From the IMG/VR virus record IMGVR_UViG_2875703104_000001: 34,750 nucleotides of DNA. One strand, given 5' to 3'. The translations under genes and the position numbers were made by a program. Positions 8,223-31,501 of the stretch are shown here, piece after piece. The notes under the pieces were generated by a model. That model was not told the origin of the DNA and ran no database searches. It worked only from the letters and a program-made list of their open reading frames with translations. This DNA comes from a virus (lineage: Duplodnaviria; Heunggongvirae; Uroviricota; Caudoviricetes). Every line of letters begins with the position of its first letter. Within the stretch, counting starts at the first letter, position 1.

Positions 8223-9269
8223 TCACTTTCCAAACTTATTAAATTGTTCAGCAATGAAATCAATATACTCATTACCTTGGCCGTTATGCCTGAATTTTTG
8301 CTGCCCTTCGAAATCTAAATTAGGTGAAAAATGAATTATTTGGTTATCTTCATACAGTTTTAAAGGAGAATAAAATGACAATGATTTATCATTCAATAAT
8401 TGACGCACTCCTGTTATAGCACTACCAATCAAAATATCACATAATTGAACTGCCGGGCTTAGTTTTGAATCAACTTGGTGAACATGCTCAAGCTTTAATG
8501 GGAATTTAATACTGGCGATTTCAGACATCTTAAACTCGGCTGGCGTCTGACATTTGATAAGCATCGAAAGATATTCATTGTATTGTAAAAGATTTTTAGA
8601 ACGATCATGCTCAATGCTATACGGTCCCTCTGACATTAATTCAGTGCGTGATATTAGTGCTTGAAGAATAACAAATGCTGCATCAGTAGAAATTTTTGGA
8701 TTAGTTATTGCCGTAATACAATCTGGATGCTCTAAAGCTAGTGGCCCCAGCACTTCCGGTAATAGACGCCAATTCACGGCCCTAACGTTCGCAATAAGGT
8801 TATTTACTGCTGTGTGCGTTTTCTCATGCATCGCATTTTGAAAAGATATTAGGATATTATCAAAATCTCTACCAAAGTAGCTTTGGCAGACATAGTAAGC
8901 CATTGATGCCATAGAAACGTTTCCACCATTTTCGTATAGATTTATCCCATGGTCATAGTAAAAAGGCTCTACCGCATACTCAATAAACATTTGAATTAGA
9001 ATCAAACGTTTATCGGCAACACAAGTAACACATGGAAAATTGGCAAGTAGTTCCTGTTGCAAAGTAAAAATTGGTTTTTGATAACTATCTCGCTTTTTAA
9101 GAGAGCTAAATTTCAATTCAGGGGCTTTGTGTTTAGGAAAATGTTGTCTGATAAGATGAAGAGCATCGTCATGACTAATCTTTACAGCGCTGGCCCCTTG
9201 CCAAGGTTGTGACTTTTGAAGAAGATCTCGCCCAGTGTAACCAGACTCATCAATTGAAAATATACTCAT
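8223..9269 (-). CDS. Cargo protein, DUF3800-like (348 aa), function unknown; candidate defence or moron gene
   Basis: N-terminus MSIFSIDESGYTG resembles the DUF3800 signature (hydrophobic-x-IDESG) and a C-terminal VQLCDILIGSAI resembles the DUF3800 QxADxxA-type motif. Gene is markedly AT-rich and sits at the P2 Z/fun position between FI and G. Confidence 0.6.
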   Translation of the reverse strand: MSIFSIDESGYTGRDLLQKSQPWQGASAVKISHDDALHLIRQHFPKHKAPELKFSSLKKRDSYQKPIFTLQQELLANFPCVTCVADKRLILIQMFIEYAVEPFYYDHGINLYENGGNVSMASMAYYVCQSYFGRDFDNILISFQNAMHEKTHTAVNNLIANVRAVNWRLLPEVLGPLALEHPDCITAITNPKISTDAAFVILQALISRTELMSEGPYSIEHDRSKNLLQYNEYLSMLIKCQTPAEFKMSEIASIKFPLKLEHVHQVDSKLSPAVQLCDILIGSAITGVRQLLNDKSLSFYSPLKLYEDNQIIHFSPNLDFEGQQKFRHNGQGNEYIDFIAEQFNKFGK

Positions 9270-9367
9270 TTATTCTGTGTCCATAGCTGTTGTTTCACCC
9301 AAAATACCTTTTTGGATAGTATTGCGCTATAGCCTTTAACCCTATTAATTGAGATCCATCGATGCAA

Positions 9368-9397
9368 GCAACGTCCGCTCATGGCACAGAGCGGACG
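9368..9397 (+). repeat. 30-bp hairpin-forming element, copy A (GCAACGTCCGCTCATGGCACAGAGCGGACG)
   Basis: Internal perfect 9-bp inverted repeat CGTCCGCTC/GAGCGGACG; about 87% identical to copy B at 11114..11143 in the same orientation. Confidence 0.7.
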
Positions 9398-9414
9398 ATA
9401 TCACTGAGCTGAAG

Positions 9415-9438
9415 GTCCGCTGAGAGCGAGGAGCGGAC
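9415..9438 (+). repeat. Second, shorter hairpin with the same GTCCGCT/AGCGGAC arms
   Basis: GTCCGCT-gagagcgagg-AGCGGAC, read directly, 18 bp downstream of copy A. Confidence 0.6.
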
Positions 9439-9548
9439 GTAGGGAATTGGTCCTTTCCCCCAACGATAACGTGTGTTAATCAGCCGAGAGTGGGTTATGA
9501 AACGCGGTGAATAGTTATGTTCCCAGTATCGCCATATTCCAGCCACTT

Positions 9549-10934
9549 TCAACGCATGCTTTTTGCGGTCTTATCTTGCTCCCAATGTGTGACACCTTCG
9601 ACCCCACGCGTCGAGTCAGATGTAAGCATCAATGGCTGTCTAAGGAAGAGCCCCATCAAATCCGGGACACGGGCAAAGTCTTGAACAGTCTCAGCCCACT
9701 CATAGTTGTCCTCTAATGGGTAATAATTAACGGCATGCAGGAAAGCACCCAACACGGTTGTTTTAGAGGCATCGTAGGCCGAGATATGCTCCATGTTTTT
9801 ATCCCTACGTAGTTCTTCAATATCTATGCCTTCGCAAGTCTCATACCAAATATGCACCACGCCAGCACGATCAGGGGGAATCTGCATGACTCCATCATTG
9901 AGCAAGCTCTTGAAATGCTTGGATCTGAGGCCAAGAGAAATCTCATGATCGCAGCACCACTGAGCTCCAACGCACTTTGCAACATCCTCTACAAAAATGT
10001 TGAGAATATCGTTATTGGTGCCAGGACGAATAACTCTCTGAGCGATAGTCGAGATACTTCGTTTCTCATTGCTATCTAGATCCCCAAATACCAGCAATTC
10101 ATGCTGTGGGCTATTGGCTCTGACTGAAAATTTTCTGTAGTGACGTCTGAGACCTAATTTGTCGATGGCTCGTATTCCCACACTGATTGAACCTTCATTA
10201 GCTTTTCCCGTCCCCCCTTTAATGGCTAGATTCACCGCTTTAATAACGTCTGCCGGAGTCACACTGGCGACCTGCTCATGGAAAATTATATCGACAATGT
10301 TCCATGGTGCGACTTTGAGCATATGTTGGCTCAATTGATGCCAGATGTTGGCCCAGGCTTGCTCTTCTGTCTTTGAGTACTTGGTTTGCTTATCCGACCT
10401 TTTGCACTCGACGTAGAACTCCAGATCACCTAACTTGACGAGCATATCCGGTGATTTTTTGGTCTTTCCATCGGGCCAAACAATGCTGCTTTCTGGGATG
10501 AAGGCAACCTCATAGCCGTTCTTTAGGTAGAACGATGCCGTCAGCAGCTCAAAAATTTGAGTTTCTGGTTTATTGTTATTTGCTAGCATTTTGTCCAGAA
10601 CATCATCGACGTATGGGACTTTGCGAAGCTGGTCTGCAACAGCTCCGATGGCCATAGCATAGGGGTAGATACGTCTGCTGCTGTAAGTAGCATCACTATA
10701 TGGAAAATCATGAGACAGATACGACGCCAGAATGTACCAGTCGATGTCATCTTCTGCTGGTATGAAGAGCTGGGGCTCTATCGGCAGATTGATGTTAAAC
10801 TTAGCCTCCTTCTCTCTTATGCGCTTGAAATATGCAGCTTTGCGAGCAGCCCAGGCCTCAGTTCCAAGCCTATCCACAAGCAACTGATAAAAAGCTTTTG
10901 TTCTTAAACGCTCAACACTACTGACACTATCCAT
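9549..10934 (-). CDS. Cargo protein of unknown function (461 aa) with a possible PD-(D/E)xK nuclease-like motif
   Basis: AT-rich ORF with no recognisable P2 counterpart. The segment SPDMLVKLGDLEFYVECK has PD...E-x-K spacing compatible with a restriction-endonuclease-like core; this is weak, motif-only evidence. Confidence 0.55.
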   Translation of the reverse strand: MDSVSSVERLRTKAFYQLLVDRLGTEAWAARKAAYFKRIREKEAKFNINLPIEPQLFIPAEDDIDWYILASYLSHDFPYSDATYSSRRIYPYAMAIGAVADQLRKVPYVDDVLDKMLANNNKPETQIFELLTASFYLKNGYEVAFIPESSIVWPDGKTKKSPDMLVKLGDLEFYVECKRSDKQTKYSKTEEQAWANIWHQLSQHMLKVAPWNIVDIIFHEQVASVTPADVIKAVNLAIKGGTGKANEGSISVGIRAIDKLGLRRHYRKFSVRANSPQHELLVFGDLDSNEKRSISTIAQRVIRPGTNNDILNIFVEDVAKCVGAQWCCDHEISLGLRSKHFKSLLNDGVMQIPPDRAGVVHIWYETCEGIDIEELRRDKNMEHISAYDASKTTVLGAFLHAVNYYPLEDNYEWAETVQDFARVPDLMGLFLRQPLMLTSDSTRGVEGVTHWEQDKTAKSMR

Positions 10935-23243: not shown

Positions 23244-23416
23244 TGTCAGGAGTCCTGAATAGTGATTAGAGGAGTCACATGTCGGCATCAGTTTCCCGAC
23301 GATGCGCATCCTCCGCCATCAGTCCCGGATGGCTTATCACTGACACAACAGCACCTTAGCGAATCGCGGGGCGCGACTCAGTAGCCTTGCCGTGTATTCA
23401 TCACGGCGAGGTATTC
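23244..23416. promoter_or_regulatory. Divergent late promoter region between O and P (expected Ogr-dependent promoters)
   Basis: Position only: intergenic region between the divergently transcribed O-N-M-L and P-Q operons. I could not confirm a clean activator-binding motif by eye. Confidence 0.4.
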
Positions 23417-25189
23417 ATGACCATCACCACAGACACCACTCTTTTACACGACCCGCGTCGTCAGGCGGCGCTGCTGTACTGGCAGGGGTTTTCCGTGCCG
23501 CAGATTGCCGCCATGTTGCAGATGAAACGCCCGACGGTGCAGAGCTGGAAACAGCGCGACGGCTGGGACAGCGTTGCCCCCATCAGCCGTGTCGAAATGA
23601 GTCTGGAAGCGCGGCTGACCCAGCTCATCATCAAACCGCAGAAAACCGGCGGTGACTTCAAGGAAATTGACCTGCTGGGACGCCAGATTGAACGACTGGC
23701 ACGGGTAAACCGTTACAGTCAGACCGGCAACGAGGCAGACCTTAATCCGAACGTCGCTAACCGCAACAAAGGCGGGCGTCGCAAACCGAAAAAGAATTTT
23801 TTCAGTGACGAGGCCATCGAAAAGCTGGAGCAGATTTTCTTTGAGCAGTCTTTCGACTATCAGTTGCACTGGTATCGCGCCGGGCTTGAGCACCGCATCC
23901 GCGATATCCTGAAATCCCGCCAGATTGGCGCGACGTTTTATTTTTCCCGCGAGGCGCTGCTGCGCGCCCTGAAAACCGGTCATAACCAGATTTTTCTGTC
24001 GGCCAGTAAAACGCAGGCGTATGTGTTCCGTGAATACATCATCGCCTTTGCCCGGCTGGTTGACGTTGACCTGACCGGTGACCCGATTGTCCTGGGCAAT
24101 AACGGCGCAAAACTGATTTTTCTCGGCACCAACTCCAACACCGCACAGAGCCATAACGGCGACCTGTACGTCGATGAGATTTTCTGGATCCCGAATTTTC
24201 AGGTACTGCGTAAGGTGGCATCAGGTATGGCCTCACAGAGTCACCTGCGCTCGACCTATTTCTCCACCCCGTCCACGCTGGCGCACGACGCCTACCCGTT
24301 CTGGTCGGGTGAACTGTTCAACCGGGGACGCGCCAGCGCCGCCGAACGCGTGGAAATCGACGTCAGTCATAACGCCCTTGCCGGTGGGCTTCTCTGTGCG
24401 GACGGCCAGTGGCGGCAGATTGTCACCATTGAGGACGCCCTGAAAGGTGGCTGCACGCTGTTCGACATTGAGCAGCTCAAACGTGAAAACAGCGCCGACG
24501 ATTTTAAAAACCTGTTCATGTGTGAATTTGTTGACGACAAGGCGTCGGTGTTCCCGTTCGAGGAGCTGCAACGCTGCATGGTCGACACGCTGGAAGAATG
24601 GGAAGACTATGCGCCGTTTGCCGCCAATCCGTTCGGCTCCCGCCCGGTATGGATTGGTTACGACCCGTCACACCGTGGCGACAGCGCCGGATGCGTGGTG
24701 CTGGCACCGCCGGTGGTGGCCGGTGGCAAATTCAGAATACTTGAGCGTCACCAGTGGAAAGGCATGGACTTTGCCACCCAGGCGGAATCCATCCGCAAAC
24801 TCACCGAAAAATATAACGTTGAATACATCGGGATTGATGCCACCGGCCTCGGTGTCGGCGTGTTCCAGCTCGTGCGCTCGTTCTATCCCGCCGCGCGCGA
24901 TATCCGCTACACGCCGGAAATGAAAACCGCAATGGTGCTCAAGGCAAAAGACGTTATCCGCCGTGGCTGTCTGGAATATGACGTCAGCGCCACCGACATC
25001 ACCAGCTCGTTTATGGCTATCCGCAAGACCATGACCAGCAGCGGACGCAGCGCCACCTATGAGGCCAGCCGCAGCGAGGAAGCCAGCCACGCCGACCTCG
25101 CCTGGGCGACCATGCACGCCCTGTTAAATGAGCCACTCACCGCCGGTATCAGCACCCCGCTGACATCCACCATTCTGGAGTTTTACTGA
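23417..25189 (+). CDS. P: Terminase ATPase (large) subunit gpP (590 aa)
   Basis: MTITTDTTLLHDPRRQAALLYWQGFSVPQIAAMLQMKRPTVQSW matches P2 gpP as recalled; the ORF-track start at 23387 adds 10 codons. Confidence 0.9.
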   Translation: MTITTDTTLLHDPRRQAALLYWQGFSVPQIAAMLQMKRPTVQSWKQRDGWDSVAPISRVEMSLEARLTQLIIKPQKTGGDFKEIDLLGRQIERLARVNRYSQTGNEADLNPNVANRNKGGRRKPKKNFFSDEAIEKLEQIFFEQSFDYQLHWYRAGLEHRIRDILKSRQIGATFYFSREALLRALKTGHNQIFLSASKTQAYVFREYIIAFARLVDVDLTGDPIVLGNNGAKLIFLGTNSNTAQSHNGDLYVDEIFWIPNFQVLRKVASGMASQSHLRSTYFSTPSTLAHDAYPFWSGELFNRGRASAAERVEIDVSHNALAGGLLCADGQWRQIVTIEDALKGGCTLFDIEQLKRENSADDFKNLFMCEFVDDKASVFPFEELQRCMVDTLEEWEDYAPFAANPFGSRPVWIGYDPSHRGDSAGCVVLAPPVVAGGKFRILERHQWKGMDFATQAESIRKLTEKYNVEYIGIDATGLGVGVFQLVRSFYPAARDIRYTPEMKTAMVLKAKDVIRRGCLEYDVSATDITSSFMAIRKTMTSSGRSATYEASRSEEASHADLAWATMHALLNEPLTAGISTPLTSTILEFY

Positions 25190-26223
25190 TGAGCAAGAAA
25201 AAAGGGAAAACACCGCGACCAGCGGCAAAAACAATGACCGCCAGCGCCCCGAAAATGGAGGCATTCACCTTTGGTGAGCCGGTGCCGGTACTCGACCGCC
25301 GTGACATTCTGGATTACGTCGAGTGCATCAGTAACGGCAGATGGTATGAGCCACCGGTCAGCTTTACCGGTCTGGCAAAAAGCCTGCGTGCTGCCGTACA
25401 TCACAGCTCGCCAATTTACGTCAAACGCAATATTCTGGCCTCGACATTTATCCCGCACCCGTGGCTTTCCCAGCAGGATTTCAGCCGTTTTGTGCTGGAT
25501 TTTCTGGTGTTCGGTAATGCGTTTCTGGAAAAGCGTTACAGCACCACCGGTAAGGTCATCAGACTGGAAACCTCACCGGCCAAATATACCCGTCGTGGCG
25601 TGGAGGAGGATGTTTACTGGTGGGTGCCGTCCTTCAACGAGCCGACAGCCTTCGCGCCCGGCTCCGTGTTTCACCTGCTGGAGCCGGATATTAATCAGGA
25701 GCTGTACGGCCTGCCGGAATATCTCAGCGCCCTTAACTCTGCCTGGCTGAATGAATCGGCCACGCTGTTCCGCCGCAAGTATTACGAAAACGGCGCACAT
25801 GCCGGATACATCATGTACGTCACCGATGCCGTGCAGGATCGCAACGATATCGAAATGCTTCGCGAAAACATGGTTAAGTCGAAAGGCCGCAATAACTTTA
25901 AAAATCTGTTTCTCTATGCCCCTCAGGGGAAAGCCGACGGCATTAAAATTATCCCCCTCAGTGAAGTGGCAACGAAGGACGATTTTTTTAATATCAAAAA
26001 ATCCAGCGCCGCTGACCTGCTGGACGCGCACCGCATCCCCTTTCAGTTGATGGGCGGCAAGCCGGAGAACGTCGGGTCGCTGGGTGATATTGAGAAAGTG
26101 GCAAAGGTCTTTGTCCGCAATGAGCTTATCCCGTTACAGGACAGGATTCGGGAAATAAACGGCTGGCTCGGTCAGGAGGTCATCCGCTTTAAAAACTACT
26201 CACTGGACACTGACAACGGCTGA
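25189..26223 (+). CDS. Q: Portal protein gpQ (344 aa)
   Basis: Length and synteny match P2 gpQ; start overlaps the P stop. Confidence 0.9.
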   Translation: MSKKKGKTPRPAAKTMTASAPKMEAFTFGEPVPVLDRRDILDYVECISNGRWYEPPVSFTGLAKSLRAAVHHSSPIYVKRNILASTFIPHPWLSQQDFSRFVLDFLVFGNAFLEKRYSTTGKVIRLETSPAKYTRRGVEEDVYWWVPSFNEPTAFAPGSVFHLLEPDINQELYGLPEYLSALNSAWLNESATLFRRKYYENGAHAGYIMYVTDAVQDRNDIEMLRENMVKSKGRNNFKNLFLYAPQGKADGIKIIPLSEVATKDDFFNIKKSSAADLLDAHRIPFQLMGGKPENVGSLGDIEKVAKVFVRNELIPLQDRIREINGWLGQEVIRFKNYSLDTDNG

Positions 26224-26531: not shown

Positions 26532-26557
26532 AAAAAAAACCGCCTTCAAAGAGGCGG
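26532..26557 (-). terminator. Rho-independent terminator downstream of the kinase-HIRAN gene (minus strand)
   Basis: Plus strand AAAAAAAA-CCGCCT-tcaaag-AGGCGG; on the minus strand this is a hairpin followed by U8, about 20 nt after the stop at 26577. Confidence 0.7.
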
Positions 26558-26576
26558 TTTATGTTATCCCATTGGA

Positions 26577-28220
26577 TTAAGATCTACATTCAACTAAAAG
26601 GTACACTAATGGACGTTCTGGCGTCCCATTCTTCTTTGCAACAAAAGCAGATATTTTGTGTTTTGCTATTTTTTGCTTGAGTTTTTTACATAACACTTTG
26701 TTTATATAACCAAGTTTCCCGCTCTCATGAACAACAGCTATAGCATGTGGATCAACCGGGTTATCCTCTTCAGGAACAAGCTTGACCAAATCACCGACCA
26801 TTACTTTCGACAAATCAAGCCCTTCCTGATAACGAGTTCCTGCCACTTCAAAAAGAAGCTCACCTTCACTATTAAGAATTTCTGGATCTGGCACCAAACA
26901 AAAACCATCGCCAGGTGATTTTGCTCCTGTATATCCTAACAGCGCAAAATCAGAGCCTTCAAATGGATGGGGGAGCAAATGTTGAGCCAGATACTCAGCA
27001 AAGTCTTTTCTTTTCCGTGGTGGTAAACGCCGAACAAACGGGTCAAGCACGTTGTTCGTATGTTCTTCACTTTTCAGACTAAATGCGGGATGTCCTGCAA
27101 ACCCTTTCTCTTGGGCTTTAGCATAATCTTCTGACTGAAAATGGTATGTGAAGACGTAGTTATCCCCTTGCTGACGATCAATCTGACCAACAACATAACG
27201 AGTACCGCCTGTGGGTGGCTGCCATGTAAGAAGCAACCGAGTAGGCTCCATTATTCTGTTTATAGTACGCATATTTAGAATCAGTGATAACCTTAGGTAT
27301 CTACGCCTCAATAAACGAATCGTCCAATCCGCTCGTTCCCTAGTGAACGGCACATCGGAGCTAATTTCGCAAAGTGAATCTATCTTGTCGACCAGTTCCT
27401 GAAAATCAAATTCAAGTCTCCGGGCCAAGTACGCTTTTGACTGCTCATCAAGAGCCAAATCCTGTATAGAAGAAATATGACCTAATCGTTCATGCGTGTC
27501 TGCCCGATTCTTCCGCAAATGATGACAACCACGCTGTATGTATTCATCTACATTTTGATGGTTCCATCCTCTGATCCTCTCTACATACCTTTCATGCCCC
27601 AAACTAGTACCATTATCGAAATATGGTGCGAGATATCCCTTCACTTTAGGTGGCGTTATGCCTGGTGCAGATTCAGGTACAAAAACAAAACCCCAATTCT
27701 CTTGGTGTCTATCACTATTACCGATGAGCGCATCAAAAAGCAGCATATCGTAAAGCCATTGGATCCAGTCTGGAGAGATCAGGCCGCGGATACTAAAAGC
27801 CCTACAAATTAAGCGTAGATCAACAAGGTTATGGTGTCTTCCGGAAGAGTCATCAAAATCCGATATCAACACATGAAAAAAATCAGACGCATGAACAAAT
27901 AACTGGCTACTTTGATCGTAAAACCACTCAAGCAAAGCTCCATATTCGTATTCACCGTTCTCCATCATTCTTCGCGCTGGCAATGCTTTAGGAACAGGAA
28001 CGCCCATAACATCTCCAACTATATAAGCAACGGTTTCCATCCAGTACTGATCGGGATAAGCATCTCTTGAGAGTTTAAAAAGATAAGGCCATTCCGGTTT
28101 TATCCCCTCAGGAGCATCATTCGGTGACCAAAGCATTTTTTTATCCCTCGCTCCTCGAGGAAAAATGCCATGCTCATCATCTTTACGCCAACTAGTTACA
28201 TCTATTAAATTGATATCCAT
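26577..28220 (-). CDS. HipA-like Ser/Thr kinase domain protein with C-terminal HIRAN-like domain (547 aa); candidate defence or toxin effector
   Basis: LFDALIGNSDRHQENWGFVF fits the HipA-family catalytic loop (GNxDxHxxN) and LAPYFDNGTSLG the downstream HipA motif. C-terminus LFEVAGTRYQEG...LVPEEDNPVDPHAIAVVHESGKLGYINK fits the HIRAN signature. Gene is AT-rich and sits between cos and A. Confidence 0.65.
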   Translation of the reverse strand: MDINLIDVTSWRKDDEHGIFPRGARDKKMLWSPNDAPEGIKPEWPYLFKLSRDAYPDQYWMETVAYIVGDVMGVPVPKALPARRMMENGEYEYGALLEWFYDQSSQLFVHASDFFHVLISDFDDSSGRHHNLVDLRLICRAFSIRGLISPDWIQWLYDMLLFDALIGNSDRHQENWGFVFVPESAPGITPPKVKGYLAPYFDNGTSLGHERYVERIRGWNHQNVDEYIQRGCHHLRKNRADTHERLGHISSIQDLALDEQSKAYLARRLEFDFQELVDKIDSLCEISSDVPFTRERADWTIRLLRRRYLRLSLILNMRTINRIMEPTRLLLTWQPPTGGTRYVVGQIDRQQGDNYVFTYHFQSEDYAKAQEKGFAGHPAFSLKSEEHTNNVLDPFVRRLPPRKRKDFAEYLAQHLLPHPFEGSDFALLGYTGAKSPGDGFCLVPDPEILNSEGELLFEVAGTRYQEGLDLSKVMVGDLVKLVPEEDNPVDPHAIAVVHESGKLGYINKVLCKKLKQKIAKHKISAFVAKKNGTPERPLVYLLVECRS

Positions 28221-28229
28221 ATCTTACGG

Positions 28230-28781
28230 TTACCCAGCTAATGCACGGAAAGCAGCACTAACATAAGCTACCTGAAACTTTGCATCTCGAAGCGCATGAT
28301 GCGCATCAGTAACATTAATGGAAAAATTTGCCCTTACATCAATATTCTTAAGGCTTTTAGCTAGTTCAACGATGGTACGCACGTCTCGATCATTTCGAAA
28401 ACGCCATGGGATATTTTGCGCATGTTTACGGTAAACCGCTGCCAATATAGCGTTATCAAAGCTTGCCCCATTCCCCCAAACTTGTACGTCATCGTTACTA
28501 CGACTTCGTACAAATAGAGAAAATTCTTGTAAGGCTTCATGTAAGTCAACAGCAGACGGGTCATTAAAAACCGCCCTTGCAGAATCGCTTTGTATCATCC
28601 ACCACTGTAAAGTTTTTGGGTCTACAAAACTATTTTCCAATGCAGATGATAGGGTTATAACTCTATAAAACTCATCCCCACACTTGCCAGTCAGAGGCTC
28701 AAAGAACACAGCGCCGATTGAAATCAAAGGAGCATCCATTGACACACCTAATGTTTCTATATCGAGCATTAAATTATTCAT
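28230..28781 (-). CDS. DEDDh-family (DnaQ/RNase T-like) 3'-5' exonuclease (183 aa)
   Basis: Exo I motif LDIETLG (D-x-E), central FDNAIL aspartate and C-terminal AHHALRDA (H-x4-D). GGAGG ribosome-binding site 4 nt before the ATG; 9-nt gap to the kinase gene suggests one operon. Confidence 0.7.
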   Translation of the reverse strand: MNNLMLDIETLGVSMDAPLISIGAVFFEPLTGKCGDEFYRVITLSSALENSFVDPKTLQWWMIQSDSARAVFNDPSAVDLHEALQEFSLFVRSRSNDDVQVWGNGASFDNAILAAVYRKHAQNIPWRFRNDRDVRTIVELAKSLKNIDVRANFSINVTDAHHALRDAKFQVAYVSAAFRALAG

Positions 28782-28921
28782 TTAACCTCCACCCCAGACA
28801 TAGCTCAGGGAAACGTAACCTATTGAAATAACGAATCAAGTATTTGTCACATTCTATACTAAAACATTCGAATTCCAAAACTTCAGCTTTTGCAACCCCT
28901 TACAAGTCAATTGATCCATAA

Positions 28922-28959: not shown

Positions 28960-31236
28960 TCAAGGGAAATCATTAAAACCCGGCCAATCACAACAAGGCG
29001 GATAAACAAATTTTTTCATGTCATAAATAACTTCTGCCCCACGAGCCAGCGCCTCAAGCTCCCATCTCTGAGGCCTGATACCGTTCTGAGCAAGGTCAAC
29101 GCGGATACGGGTGATTTGCAATCGTTCAGACCGGGTCAGTCTGGCCGATGGTGCAATTTCATGCGGTTTTAACGGGCTTCCGTTTCTTTGCTGACGGTTT
29201 GGTCTTCTCAGGCCGTATTTTAATGCACCTCTGAGCGCCCTCACGACCTCCGGGTCATTCCATTCGATAACACCGTCATCAACCAGATTAAGCACTGCTG
29301 CGGCGTGCTCAGAAGGTGTGGGAGCCAGTAACGAAGTATCACCACCGGTGAGCTTTCCACAGTTATTGACAGGACTCCGAGGCGCGGCGATGCCGCTTTT
29401 TAAAGTCAAAGGCTCAACGACCGGAACTTTCGGCACAATGCGCCAGTCCGTCGTTCTGGTGATATGAATATGACGCGCGCCGAGATGCGGCGCGTAAATG
29501 CCGACCACTCTCTCGACTTCTTCCTCGTACTCGTTAACGTCATCCGACGGACTACGGGCGACCCTGACAGTCTGACAATCGCGCGGGACATTTGCCCCGC
29601 CCTGCGCGCTGATATACAGCGCAAAATCGCCACTGTCTGCGGCAGCGCGTGCAGCCTCCACGCGTTCGTCAAACTCATCAGCAATACTGACGCCGCGAGG
29701 CAATTTACGTAGTTCACGGTAAGCCCCCATTGTCGGCAGTCCAACCGTTTTAAATTGCGGGATGCGCCACGTTGACGCCCATGCGGTAACAGCCGCGGCA
29801 GTATCTTTAAGCGGCTTACCGGTATCGTTATCGAGCTGACCATCCAGTGCATAGCCGTCGATATTTTTTGAAATGTATTTCGCGATATATCCCGCAGCAC
29901 CGCCCCGGTTAAGATGCTTTGCCTGAAAACGGTTTCGCGCGGCTCCTCTTTCGTCACCATCCTCTTTGAGCGCATAGCGACGCATGATTTCGATAATCTG
30001 GTTACGCTGGCGTGGATTACAAAAAAGCATCATATGCCAGTGCGGCGTTCCGTCGTGGTGTGGCTCGACGACACGCAAACCGTAGACCTGTAAATCATTA
30101 TCCTTGAATGCCGTACGCATCAGGCTCCAGATACGGCAGAGATAACGCTGCGCATCCTTTGGATTAAATGCCTCATCATTCCAGCCGTGATTAAGCTGGA
30201 CGGTTTTACTTTCGCCTTTTCCGACCTGACGTGTCGGATGATACTTTGACGGCGCGGTCATCGTGATAAACATCCCCACATCACCCTCTGCGGCGGCGTA
30301 ACGCTCAATTCCGGCGATGGTGTTCATCAGCTCCATCCGGCGAATTTCAGGATTAGAAATACTGCCCATCACCTTACTGATAAGGTCGATGCGCTCGCCG
30401 GTTTCCCTGTTTTCAAGGTCACACGATTTAAGAAATTCCAGATTTGCCTGGCGGCGCGCACGCACATCACGAATGGCATGTTTACTGGCATAAGGAGAAC
30501 GGTCTTTATTGACCTCCCCGACAGCAATCAGTAACGCCTCATGCCAGCGCATACGCTGGCCTTTAAGCTGATGAGTCCACCACTCATCGTTAAACAGACG
30601 GGCAATGGCAGAATATGCCTGCCTCGTGGTCATCTGTCCTTTACGGTATTTTTTCCAGTAGAGCGGGGAAATATTGAAAGCACGTGCAGCGCCAGCAACA
30701 TGACCATACAGGTGAGCCTGCGCCTCATCCGTAAACAGCGATTCTTTTTCGCCATGCGCATCCACCCAGGCATCGCAGAGTTCCTCATACATCATGAAAA
30801 GCTGCGATGAGATTCGGGCGGCAAACTTTTTCAGCTCCTTGTCATTCATCCCCGGCAGGCGCGCATACTGGTCGCGCTCTGCCAGAAACAGCAACGACGC
30901 GTCGGTGTTCATTTCATGGCGCTGATTCACGCGCTCAATGCGCGGCCATAAACGACGCTGAAAAGTGGATGTGAGGAAATAAAACCCGTGCACCGGGCTT
31001 TTATTGCGCCGGATGTAGTCATAGCGTGAAGTAAACAGCGAACGCAAAAAGTAAGGCAGGCGGTTAATCGTGGATAAAACACCTTGCACCTGACGCATCT
31101 CGTCACGTGTAAGGGGTCTTTCGCGCCCGACAGCCTCGCGTGGCGCGTTCCATGCATAAGCACCGGTAAACGCCTTACCGGTGCCTGCGGCAAATGCTGA
31201 CGGAGGGACAAAACGCCCGGAGGCTTTAACGGCCAT
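28960..31236 (-). CDS. A: Replication initiation protein gpA (rolling-circle HUH endonuclease), about 758 aa
   Basis: Contains the HUH motif (GTPHWHMMLF) and the P2 gpA-like N-terminus MAVKASGRFVPP. The ORF-track start at 31278 is 14 codons further upstream; start choice is uncertain. Confidence 0.88.
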   Translation of the reverse strand: MAVKASGRFVPPSAFAAGTGKAFTGAYAWNAPREAVGRERPLTRDEMRQVQGVLSTINRLPYFLRSLFTSRYDYIRRNKSPVHGFYFLTSTFQRRLWPRIERVNQRHEMNTDASLLFLAERDQYARLPGMNDKELKKFAARISSQLFMMYEELCDAWVDAHGEKESLFTDEAQAHLYGHVAGAARAFNISPLYWKKYRKGQMTTRQAYSAIARLFNDEWWTHQLKGQRMRWHEALLIAVGEVNKDRSPYASKHAIRDVRARRQANLEFLKSCDLENRETGERIDLISKVMGSISNPEIRRMELMNTIAGIERYAAAEGDVGMFITMTAPSKYHPTRQVGKGESKTVQLNHGWNDEAFNPKDAQRYLCRIWSLMRTAFKDNDLQVYGLRVVEPHHDGTPHWHMMLFCNPRQRNQIIEIMRRYALKEDGDERGAARNRFQAKHLNRGGAAGYIAKYISKNIDGYALDGQLDNDTGKPLKDTAAAVTAWASTWRIPQFKTVGLPTMGAYRELRKLPRGVSIADEFDERVEAARAAADSGDFALYISAQGGANVPRDCQTVRVARSPSDDVNEYEEEVERVVGIYAPHLGARHIHITRTTDWRIVPKVPVVEPLTLKSGIAAPRSPVNNCGKLTGGDTSLLAPTPSEHAAAVLNLVDDGVIEWNDPEVVRALRGALKYGLRRPNRQQRNGSPLKPHEIAPSARLTRSERLQITRIRVDLAQNGIRPQRWELEALARGAEVIYDMKKFVYPPCCDWPGFNDFP

Positions 31237-31501
31237 ATGAGCCAAAAGCCTCTGAACAACGCTTGCTGAGTTGCTCAACCTGCGCGTTTAAATCAGCAAA
31301 AGACTTTGCGCTTCCGGTCAGAATATCGTGATGCATCAGGCCGGAAACGAGCTGGCTTAATTTCGGGTAATAACCAACCACCGACAGCCATTCCTGACCG
31401 GCGTTTTTACCGCTTTCCGCTCTCTTTTTCTCGTGGAGAACAAACTGAAAGCTGTCACTGGTAACGACATAACGTTCGCCAATTTCAATACGAATACTCA
31501 T
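31226..31501 (-). CDS. Small early-operon protein, P2 orf83-like by position (91 aa)
   Basis: Position immediately upstream of A in the cox-B-A operon; no motif recognised. Confidence 0.6.
   Translation of the reverse strand: MSIRIEIGERYVVTSDSFQFVLHEKKRAESGKNAGQEWLSVVGYYPKLSQLVSGLMHHDILTGSAKSFADLNAQVEQLSKRCSEAFGSYGR

Follow-up and report, generated by a model that had tools for sequence, protein, structure and literature searches.

A DEDDh exonuclease gene co-inherited with a HIRAN-bearing HipL kinase in a P2-like prophage: a possible safety catch on a putative DNA-end sensor

Introduction

The viral genome record IMGVR_UViG_2875703104_000001 of IMG/VR (Duplodnaviria; Heunggongvirae; Uroviricota; Caudoviricetes) is a stretch of 34,750 nucleotides (nt), the whole of which is referred to here as the window. 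It is an integrated P2-like (Peduovirus) prophage with a host flank and not a packaged phage genome, as is evident from a host cation-efflux gene, with Cation_efflux and ZT_dimer domains, in the ~0.95 kb of host DNA at its left end. Between gpA and the portal gene the prophage carries two co-oriented genes, the first encoding a small predicted DEDDh 3'-5' exonuclease and the second a HipA-type kinase, HipL, which also possesses a HIRAN domain. We report with high confidence that the two genes form a cassette and are co-inherited as one module, and we consider what their association may mean.

HipL has been described as HipI, a kinase, and its partner HipN fused into one protein, and it was proposed that HipL and HipI are activated by DNA ends sensed via HIRAN; Hip kinases arrest growth by phosphorylating translation factors, those of HipA and HipT being aminoacyl-tRNA synthetases, and are restrained by HipS-type domains (Gerdes et al., 2021, PMC8262856). 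EcD, an E. coli homologue of the T4 exonuclease DexA, is reported to degrade T4 DNA and to protect cells on its own (Kang et al., 2025, PMC12153337). NrnC-like DEDDy diDNases, which cleave DNA dinucleotides only, have HipA and HIRAN genes as neighbours in roughly a third of the actinobacterial cases (Mortensen et al., 2025, PMC11706625).

A first-pass annotation, made from the sequence alone, had suggested that the exonuclease and the kinase act together, either in processing DNA ends or as toxin/antitoxin-like partners. This interpretation is partly supported by the present analysis: functional linkage of the two genes is likely, and toxin-antitoxin and defence roles are not demonstrated.

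Methods

Three surveys were made. The kinase-first survey took one genome per species and covered 228 relatives, of which the best 80 loci were inspected; the exonuclease-first survey covered IMG/VR (80 loci) and metagenomes; and targeted look-ups constituted the third. Trees of the exonuclease and of the kinase were informal neighbour-joining (NJ) trees.

The exonuclease-hipL cassette

The upstream gene of the cassette almost certainly encodes a DEDDh 3'-5' exonuclease with intact catalytic residues, as judged from its sequence and from a structural model. It matches Pfam PF16473 (Rv2179c-like) with 192.4 bits (E=6.8e-57, cut-off 27) over profile positions 1-176 of 177, and PHROG 255 'exonuclease' with E=1e-62, and a chance match to the exonuclease family is excluded by such profile scores. 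The three short motifs by which the gene had been recognised in the first-pass annotation are indeed Exo I (D-x-E), Exo II (D) and Exo III (H-x4-D) of a DEDDh enzyme, and their residues D7, E9, D109, H161 and D166 are all present and do not vary among 31 aligned homologues, the most distant of which is 46% identical. Because these five residues are also invariant across the kinase-linked clade described below, it can be argued that enzyme activity is under selection. The AlphaFold2 model has a mean predicted local distance difference test (pLDDT) score of 92.1 and a predicted template modelling (pTM) score of 0.89, and its best structural matches in the PDB are T4 DexA (template modelling score, TM, 0.79), RNase T (~0.7) and the oligoribonuclease Orn/REXO2 (~0.68); T4 DexA is also the sole PDB match by sequence (profile E=5e-16). 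In a Pfam scan the exonuclease domain fills the whole protein, with no helix-turn-helix (HTH), ribbon-helix-helix (RHH) or other DNA-binding regulator domain, and PADLOC and NCBIfam gave nothing further beyond a weak match to a CRISPR-associated DEDDh model. Residues specific to the kinase-linked exonucleases (L11, F72, R129 and L144) gave no interpretable interface or specificity signal.

The downstream gene, hipL, encodes, in one chain, a HipA-like core with HipS-like and HIRAN domains (Table 1), and the model of the whole chain has a pLDDT of 90.8 and a pTM of 0.91. Pfam HipA_C recognises the core with 25.8 bits only, under the cut-off of 30.5. The core nevertheless has the D-x-H-x-x-N catalytic loop and the Mg-binding Asp that a HipA-type kinase requires, in the motifs GNSDRHQENWG (D170, H172, N175) and DNGTS (D202), which are invariant in 49 sequences, and Foldseek matched it to CtkA (target-normalised TM 0.76), HipA and HipT. 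With PADLOC, the protein matches PDC-M03A and PDC-M03B with 107 and 105 bits, respectively. The Couple_hipA match (26.7 bits) lies above its cut-off of 22.5 and the HIRAN match (41.2 bits) above its cut-off of 24.7, with DNA-bound HLTF HIRAN as the structural match of the latter (target-normalised TM ~0.6).

Many records annotate a kinase product of 519 aa that begins at Met29. Judged by sequence conservation, the 547-aa reading is the true start, since the 28 codons upstream of the annotated one hold W11, D14, G23, R25 and K27, all of which are invariant. Directly before Met29 is a run of seven A residues, which may be a slippage-prone on/off site and which would explain why the two lengths are annotated inconsistently.

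The arrangement of the two genes is as previously described, that is, a stand-alone exonuclease gene with a GGAGG ribosome-binding site followed by the kinase gene after 9 nt. Such a spacer would imply an operon and possibly translational coupling, and the search for promoter-like sites found none in the interval between the genes. The AT-rich gap from the gpA stop to the exonuclease start (GC content 0.37) contains a sigma-70 promoter-like site, which we regard as a weak candidate for the cassette's own promoter, as two such sites were found in the region against 5.7 expected, making the match weak evidence.

Table 1. Positions of the cassette, its sites and other features of the window
Feature	Position	Strand	Remarks
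Host cation-efflux gene	1-945	minus	host DNA, left end
Second cargo island	8223-10934	minus	between tail sheath and tail-fibre genes
Terminase gene	23387-25189	plus	
Portal gene	25189-26223	plus	
Intrinsic-terminator-like hairpin	26537-26560	minus	9 bp stem then T-run, 17 nt after kinase stop; cassette end
hipL-type kinase gene	26577-28220	minus	547 aa; HipA-like core, HipS-like and HIRAN in one chain
HIRAN domain	26646-26864	minus	residues 453-525; putative sensor of 3'-OH DNA ends
HipS-like domain	26910-27194	minus	residues 343-437; Couple_hipA, HipA N-subdomain-1 type; putative in-cis kinase regulator
Kinase core	27276-28220	minus	~residues 1-315; catalytic-loop motif, Foldseek
A7 tract	28136-28142	minus	GAT AAA AAA ATG, kinase codons 26-29; directly before internal Met29
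Spacer	28221-28229	minus	9 nt, exonuclease stop to kinase start
Exonuclease gene	28230-28781	minus	183 aa, ATG start, TAA stop; DEDDh 3'-5' exonuclease, Rv2179c-like/DexA family
Catalytic codon D166	28284-28286	minus	
Catalytic codon H161	28299-28301	minus	
Catalytic codon D109	28455-28457	minus	
Catalytic codon E9	28755-28757	minus	
Catalytic codon D7	28761-28763	minus	
Ribosome-binding site GGAGG	28786-28790	minus	4 nt upstream of exonuclease ATG; read from sequence
Sigma-70 promoter-like site	28851-28878	minus	TTGGAA, 16 nt spacer, TAGAAT; consensus match
gpA	28960-31278	minus	

The cassette is horizontally acquired cargo, bracketed by the promoter-like and terminator-like sites. The GC content is 0.41-0.44 over the exonuclease and kinase genes and 0.50-0.59 in the flanking phage genes, and the 2.8 kb interval between portal and gpA is found, 100% identical, in just two of 74 P2-like phage records (Yersinia phage GMG73 and Escherichia phage 899), the remaining 72 having only the ~220-bp cos-proximal flank in common. 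Among 5426 complete E. coli genomes the flank occurs in 2156 and the cassette in 61, with both genes present in all 61; an E. coli allele of 58% identity (L085) had no match among these genomes. The possibility, raised in the first-pass annotation, that the exonuclease might prove to be a conserved core gene of P2-like phages unrelated to the kinase is rejected by this sparse distribution, in which the gene is always accompanied by the kinase. The slot occupied by the cassette is the gpA-gpQ (old/tin) hotspot as defined by Rousset et al. (2022, PMC9122126), and thus it lies at a defence-hotspot location.

The same pair is already catalogued in that study, as an unvalidated candidate. Rousset et al. 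(PMC9122126, Tables S2B, S5) list 'DUF5051 + HIRAN' with WP_001774096 and WP_001774097, which are the RefSeq ids annotated on E. coli copies of the cassette, as well as a three-gene variant, 'DUF5051 + HipA_C + HIRAN', and they cloned 'Exonuclease + HipA' from E. coli TA255 as pFR108. Protein 1 of pFR108 is identical to the window exonuclease, protein 2 equals the window kinase in the 399 residues given for it, which begin at Met29, and the cloning primers map to window positions 26204-26223 and 29066-29085, from which it follows that the whole hotspot was tested with its native promoter. There is no sequence difference between that cassette and ours, and no mechanism was given. The present analysis adds that the two genes are consistently inherited together, that an ancestral form of three genes exists and that the kinase starts further upstream, giving the full 547 aa. 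Searches of the literature on HipL, PDC-M03, Rv2179c with phage, and HipA-like defence found no functional study of the pair.

Three natural lesions of the cassette were seen, all of them in hipL and none in the exonuclease gene. At L087 (5565-8556) an insertion sequence element, with a transposase that has an rve domain, lies inside the hipL allele and the upstream exonuclease gene is intact. In E. coli GN4738 (L176) a 10-bp deletion in the region of the kinase catalytic loop, equivalent to window 27698-27707, splits hipL into two coding sequences, again with an intact exonuclease, and in E. coli CUVET21-H2 (L177) the A7 tract lacks one base, such that only the 519-aa N-terminally truncated kinase is left.

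Elsewhere in the window, the minus strand also holds small early genes, gpB and cox, and the C repressor and integrase genes are on the plus strand at the right end. A second cargo island, at the position of the P2 Z/fun hotspot, encodes two proteins, one of 348 aa that matches DUF3800 (26 bits) and one of 461 aa for which neither Pfam nor PADLOC gave a match. Rfam matched no RNA family anywhere in the window.

Conservation of the pair

Seen from the kinase, the exonuclease gene lies directly upstream of the four closest kinases among the best 80 loci (those of Serratia, a Pseudomonadota metagenome-assembled genome, Atlantibacter and Shewanella), and seen from the exonuclease, the kinase is present only at the two closest of the 80 IMG/VR loci, the metagenomes giving the same picture. 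Every exonuclease at least 52% identical to the window copy has a kinase directly downstream, and the kinase-linked clade as a whole keeps the adjacency from 100% to ~45% identity. Among 260 fetched loci both genes occur at 27, and in 27/27 the exonuclease is immediately upstream, while all 13 distinct fused kinase relatives with a readable upstream region (at least ~48% identity) are directly preceded by a DEDDh exonuclease gene. The spacing at homologous loci ranges from a stop and start that share one base to a maximum of ~27 nt. In the NJ trees the exonucleases that are linked to a kinase group into a single clade, as do their kinases, and the branching of the two clades is nearly the same.

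The contexts in which the pair is found are unrelated to one another. The fused form occurs in P2/186-like prophages of Escherichia, Klebsiella, Serratia, Pantoea and Atlantibacter, with the order gpA, exonuclease, HipL, portal being the same for the exonucleases of E. coli and Klebsiella that are 57-58% identical to ours and for that of Pantoea (50%). A three-gene form consisting of exonuclease, kinase and HipS-HIRAN was seen in three cases, namely in Shewanella, at a chromosomal locus and on a mobile island beside a resolvase. From the sequences we conclude that the exonuclease would have joined a gammaproteobacterial HipIN module once, persisted through the fusion of HipI and HipN, and moved with the module between elements. 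The conserved adjacency, the near-congruent trees and the unrelated genomic contexts support the exonuclease and the kinase acting together, and a functional link of some kind is, in our estimation, probable.

Several loci have features of their own. In Proteus mirabilis (L262 and L263, 2615-5150) the exonuclease-hipL pair has an Ogr_Delta fragment of 43 aa as its neighbour and is flanked by ahpF-like and peptidase genes of the host, and this locus looks like a decayed P2-type prophage of which the cassette is the sole survivor. Extra genes are present between hipL and portal in 186/P2-like prophages of Klebsiella and Pantoea (L089, 7463-8611, 382 aa; L090, 7468-9034, 272 and 248 aa; L264, 5746-6819, 357 aa), and those of L089 and L090 had no convincing Pfam match, that of L264 having none on record. 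Split HipI/HipN modules at L030, L033, L045, L056, L070, L073 and other loci adjoin type I HsdR or type IIG/ISP (Eco57I/MmeI-like) genes, and such restriction-modification neighbours are consistent with a defence-island location of the kinase module generally.

A number of observations weigh against the explanation of the pair that is proposed below. Firstly, 76 of the 80 kinase-first loci, which are split HipI and HipN pairs, have no exonuclease, and because most HipI/HipN systems are of this kind the kinase module can evidently work alone. Secondly, even inside the exonuclease-bearing clade the kinases of L005 and L007 have no exonuclease (at L007, 5571-6005, a DUF3037 gene that overlaps the start of the HipI kinase takes its position), and a fused HipL of Aeromonas salmonicida (L261, 2792-6418, 41% identity) is likewise without one, being flanked by a cI-like repressor (HTH and Peptidase_S24) and the integrase of a different prophage type. 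Thirdly, hundreds of lambdoid prophages carry a close homologue of the exonuclease as a solitary gene. Fourthly, the bias of natural lesions to hipL is not significant given the 3:1 ratio of gene lengths (P ~0.42). Finally, Rousset et al. (2022, PMC9122126) looked for a defence phenotype with the exact cassette and an 8-phage panel, and pFR108 appears only in Table S2B among the 'additional tested systems', as not validated.

That the HipIN kinases of Gram-negatives might be linked to nucleases in general was considered and is rejected by the 76 of 80 loci above and by the lack of a recurrent neighbour: no protein cluster is common to more than six loci of the kinase-first set, and among the 25 of 57 Pfam families listed for 44 immediate neighbours none is an exonuclease family.

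It may be asked whether the exonuclease and kinase are independent neighbours, with the former being an HREX-like stand-alone nuclease, or an accessory of phage DNA metabolism or recombination, that lies beside an independent hipL in a crowded hotspot. The fetched loci that bear an exonuclease are mostly without the kinase (160/187). Apart from the kinase-linked clade, the homologues of 41-51% identity are solitary genes of lambdoid-type prophages, where they occupy early-left regions among Ea-type genes, and a Neisseriaceae homologue (51%) is solitary at a prophage end. EcD is reported to be active on its own, and HipL and HipIN do occur without the exonuclease. Against this stand the adjacency that the clade has kept over its full range of identity, which has outlasted the fusion of the kinase and moves among P2 prophages, other mobile elements and chromosomes, together with the near-congruent trees, a spacing that never exceeds ~27 nt and the lack of a promoter-like site between the genes. 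We regard independence of the two genes as quite unlikely.

Proposed mechanism

If the exonuclease and the kinase are linked in function, what could the exonuclease do? In a classical toxin-antitoxin system it would neutralise the kinase by direct binding, with catalysis being irrelevant. A small gene upstream of a toxin-like kinase with a tight junction, the persistence of the pair in a decayed prophage remnant and the occurrence of lesions in the kinase and not in the exonuclease are all compatible with such an arrangement. It is not, however, what the proteins themselves suggest: the exonuclease appears catalytically intact, with five residues invariant across the kinase-linked clade, and has no HTH or other autoregulatory DNA-binding domain, while HipL already holds in cis a HipS-like domain, the type of domain that is the antitoxin in HipBST-type systems. 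Moreover, many HipIN and HipL modules have no exonuclease. Thus, of the earlier proposal, the idea that the two genes act together stands, but its toxin/antitoxin form is unlikely as stated, and we consider neutralisation by binding very improbable.

We hypothesise instead that the exonuclease is an enzymatic safety catch on a DNA-end sensor. HipL would be a growth-arresting effector, a HipA-type Ser/Thr kinase whose expected target, by analogy with HipA and HipT, would be a translation factor such as an aminoacyl-tRNA synthetase. Its own HipS-like domain would keep the kinase inactive, and the binding of free 3'-OH DNA ends, or of short DNA fragments, by its HIRAN domain would activate it. 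In the unperturbed lysogen the exonuclease would trim or remove 3'-ended single-stranded DNA (ssDNA) and oligonucleotides, so keeping HipL off and setting the threshold for its activation, and the kinase would be set free by a surge of 3' ends or by inhibition of the exonuclease. Candidate triggers are DNA breakdown and the presence of a competing phage or mobile element.

HIRAN domains bind 3'-OH DNA ends, and a 3'-5' exonuclease consumes the same type of molecule as HIRAN recognises, which makes the safety-catch model the most economical. The mechanistic logic also draws on the match of the HIRAN fold to DNA-bound HLTF HIRAN and on the nearest solved relative of the exonuclease, T4 DexA, being a DNA 3'-5' exonuclease. 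That the exonuclease gene is first in the operon and that its catalytic residues are conserved support the model too, the location of all three natural lesions in hipL agrees with it, though not significantly, and a signal-clearing role is favoured by the actinobacterial diDNase, which cuts only dinucleotides and so is no genome-degrading effector. The complete explanation, comprising the exonuclease-hipL cargo cassette and this mechanism, is put forward as a tentative one that falls somewhat short of an even chance, and the specific role of the exonuclease as an eraser of the HIRAN ligand is possible, though rather doubtful.

The same co-inheritance and the strict conservation of catalytic residues could also be read as a positive action of the exonuclease, which might make the HIRAN ligand from invading DNA ends or might serve as a second effector, breaking down foreign DNA when the kinase has become active, for instance upon being phosphorylated. 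The reported degradation of T4 DNA and protection of cells by EcD (Kang et al., 2025, PMC12153337) would fit an effector of this kind. However, a 3'-5' exonuclease destroys 3' ssDNA ends and does not create them, the dinucleotide-specific actinobacterial analogue is a poor fit to an effector, and no protection was reported for the cassette cloned in pFR108. A positive role is, in our opinion, unlikely.

The nature of the substrate must also be considered. The family includes both a DNase (DexA) and an exoribonuclease (Rv2179c, its founder), and the preference of the window enzyme for DNA or RNA is not readable from its sequence, a point that counts against the safety-catch model as well. The exonuclease might thus process the 3' ends of tRNA or other RNA, tied to a translation-related target of the kinase, and the benefit to the prophage might be of another sort, such as addiction and maintenance or the exclusion of P2/P4 relatives only. 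The Pfam name marks the founder Rv2179c as an exoribonuclease, RNase T is the second-best structural match, and the aminoacyl-tRNA synthetase targets of HipA and HipT (PMC8262856) would be in keeping with this. So would the lack of reported defence against eight unrelated phages, and relatives of P2 are the target of another system from the P2 hotspot. Eight extra P2 systems were assayed with the 8-phage panel, of which only DUF4238, a three-gene system and DprA-PRTase gave protection (PMC9122126). Conversely, HIRAN points to DNA ends and not to RNA ends, the nearest solved relative is a DNase and nothing ties the exonuclease to tRNA. We consider there to be little chance that RNA ends or such a prophage benefit account for the pair.

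Were a nuclease to control the DNA-end signal as we propose, this would be a new regulatory principle for toxin-like kinases and would provide a handle on what bacterial HIRAN domains sense.

Comparison with known systems

HipL and the HipI/HipN modules of Gerdes et al. (2021, PMC8262856) correspond to the PADLOC candidate PDC-M03, and the window kinase shares their architecture of core, HipS-like domain and HIRAN; its relatives are mostly split HipI and HipN pairs. HipL was described there as monocistronic, whereas the window hipL has the exonuclease gene 9 nt upstream, and the PDC-M03 model has no exonuclease component. The HipL of Enterobacterales is not monocistronic, and the record is corrected in this respect for the exonuclease-linked clade. 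With HipBA and HipBST the cassette has in common the HipA-fold kinase, and the HipS-type domain is equivalent to N-subdomain 1 of HipA; it differs in having no HipB/HTH antitoxin and in having HIRAN and an exonuclease partner instead.

The old and tin exclusion genes of P2 occupy the same slot, from gpA to the cos site and gpQ, and have the same status as lysogen cargo, but the proteins are unrelated. P2 Old is an ATPase-linked (OLD-family) nuclease and not a DEDD enzyme. A protective nuclease-plus-kinase system from P4 hotspots, 'Bandua', was described in a 2026 paper, and it is probably a different system from ours, since neither HIRAN nor DUF5051 is found in the available part of Rousset's P4 table.

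T4 DexA and E. coli EcD (HREX; Kang et al., 2025, PMC12153337; PDB 8KEL, 8KEN) belong to the same exonuclease family as the window protein, which is ~20% identical to DexA and shorter, with 183 aa compared with 227 aa. Both DexA and EcD function by themselves, whereas the clade of the window exonuclease is kinase-linked and, at 52% identity or more, never solitary. Despite its homology to DexA, the window exonuclease is therefore not a single-gene system of the EcD (HREX) type. On its own it is an unremarkable exonuclease gene, recognised correctly, at a cargo site of a prophage.

A parallel is provided by the diDNase/HipA/HIRAN clusters of Actinomycetes and Clostridia, which are located on mobile elements or in defence islands (Mortensen et al., 2025, PMC11706625) and in which, as in the window, a small DEDD nuclease lies beside HipA and HIRAN genes. 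The diDNase belongs to the NrnC-like DEDDy enzymes, which have a Leu wedge and a 5'-phosphate cap, while the window enzyme is DEDDh (H161), belongs to PF16473 and is not NrnC/RNase D-like. As the two nuclease lineages are unrelated, the partnership of nuclease, HIRAN and kinase looks convergent. A broader and more speculative reading, which we think has a modest chance of being correct, is that HIRAN-HipA kinases sense free 3'-OH DNA ends or fragments and that a dedicated DEDD exonuclease, which sets their activation threshold by erasing the ligand, has evolved twice as their 'enzymatic antitoxin', from DexA-like DEDDh enzymes in Gammaproteobacteria and P2 prophages and from NrnC-like DEDDy diDNases in Actinobacteria. 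On this reading the cassette would be functional, and the negative result with eight phages would mean that its trigger is narrow or out of the ordinary, such as conjugative ssDNA entry, P2/P4-type elements or DNA-degrading phages. The interest of the cassette lies in this mechanism, in which a HIRAN-bearing HipA-type kinase is repeatedly partnered with a small 3'-5' DEDD nuclease drawn from two unrelated lineages.

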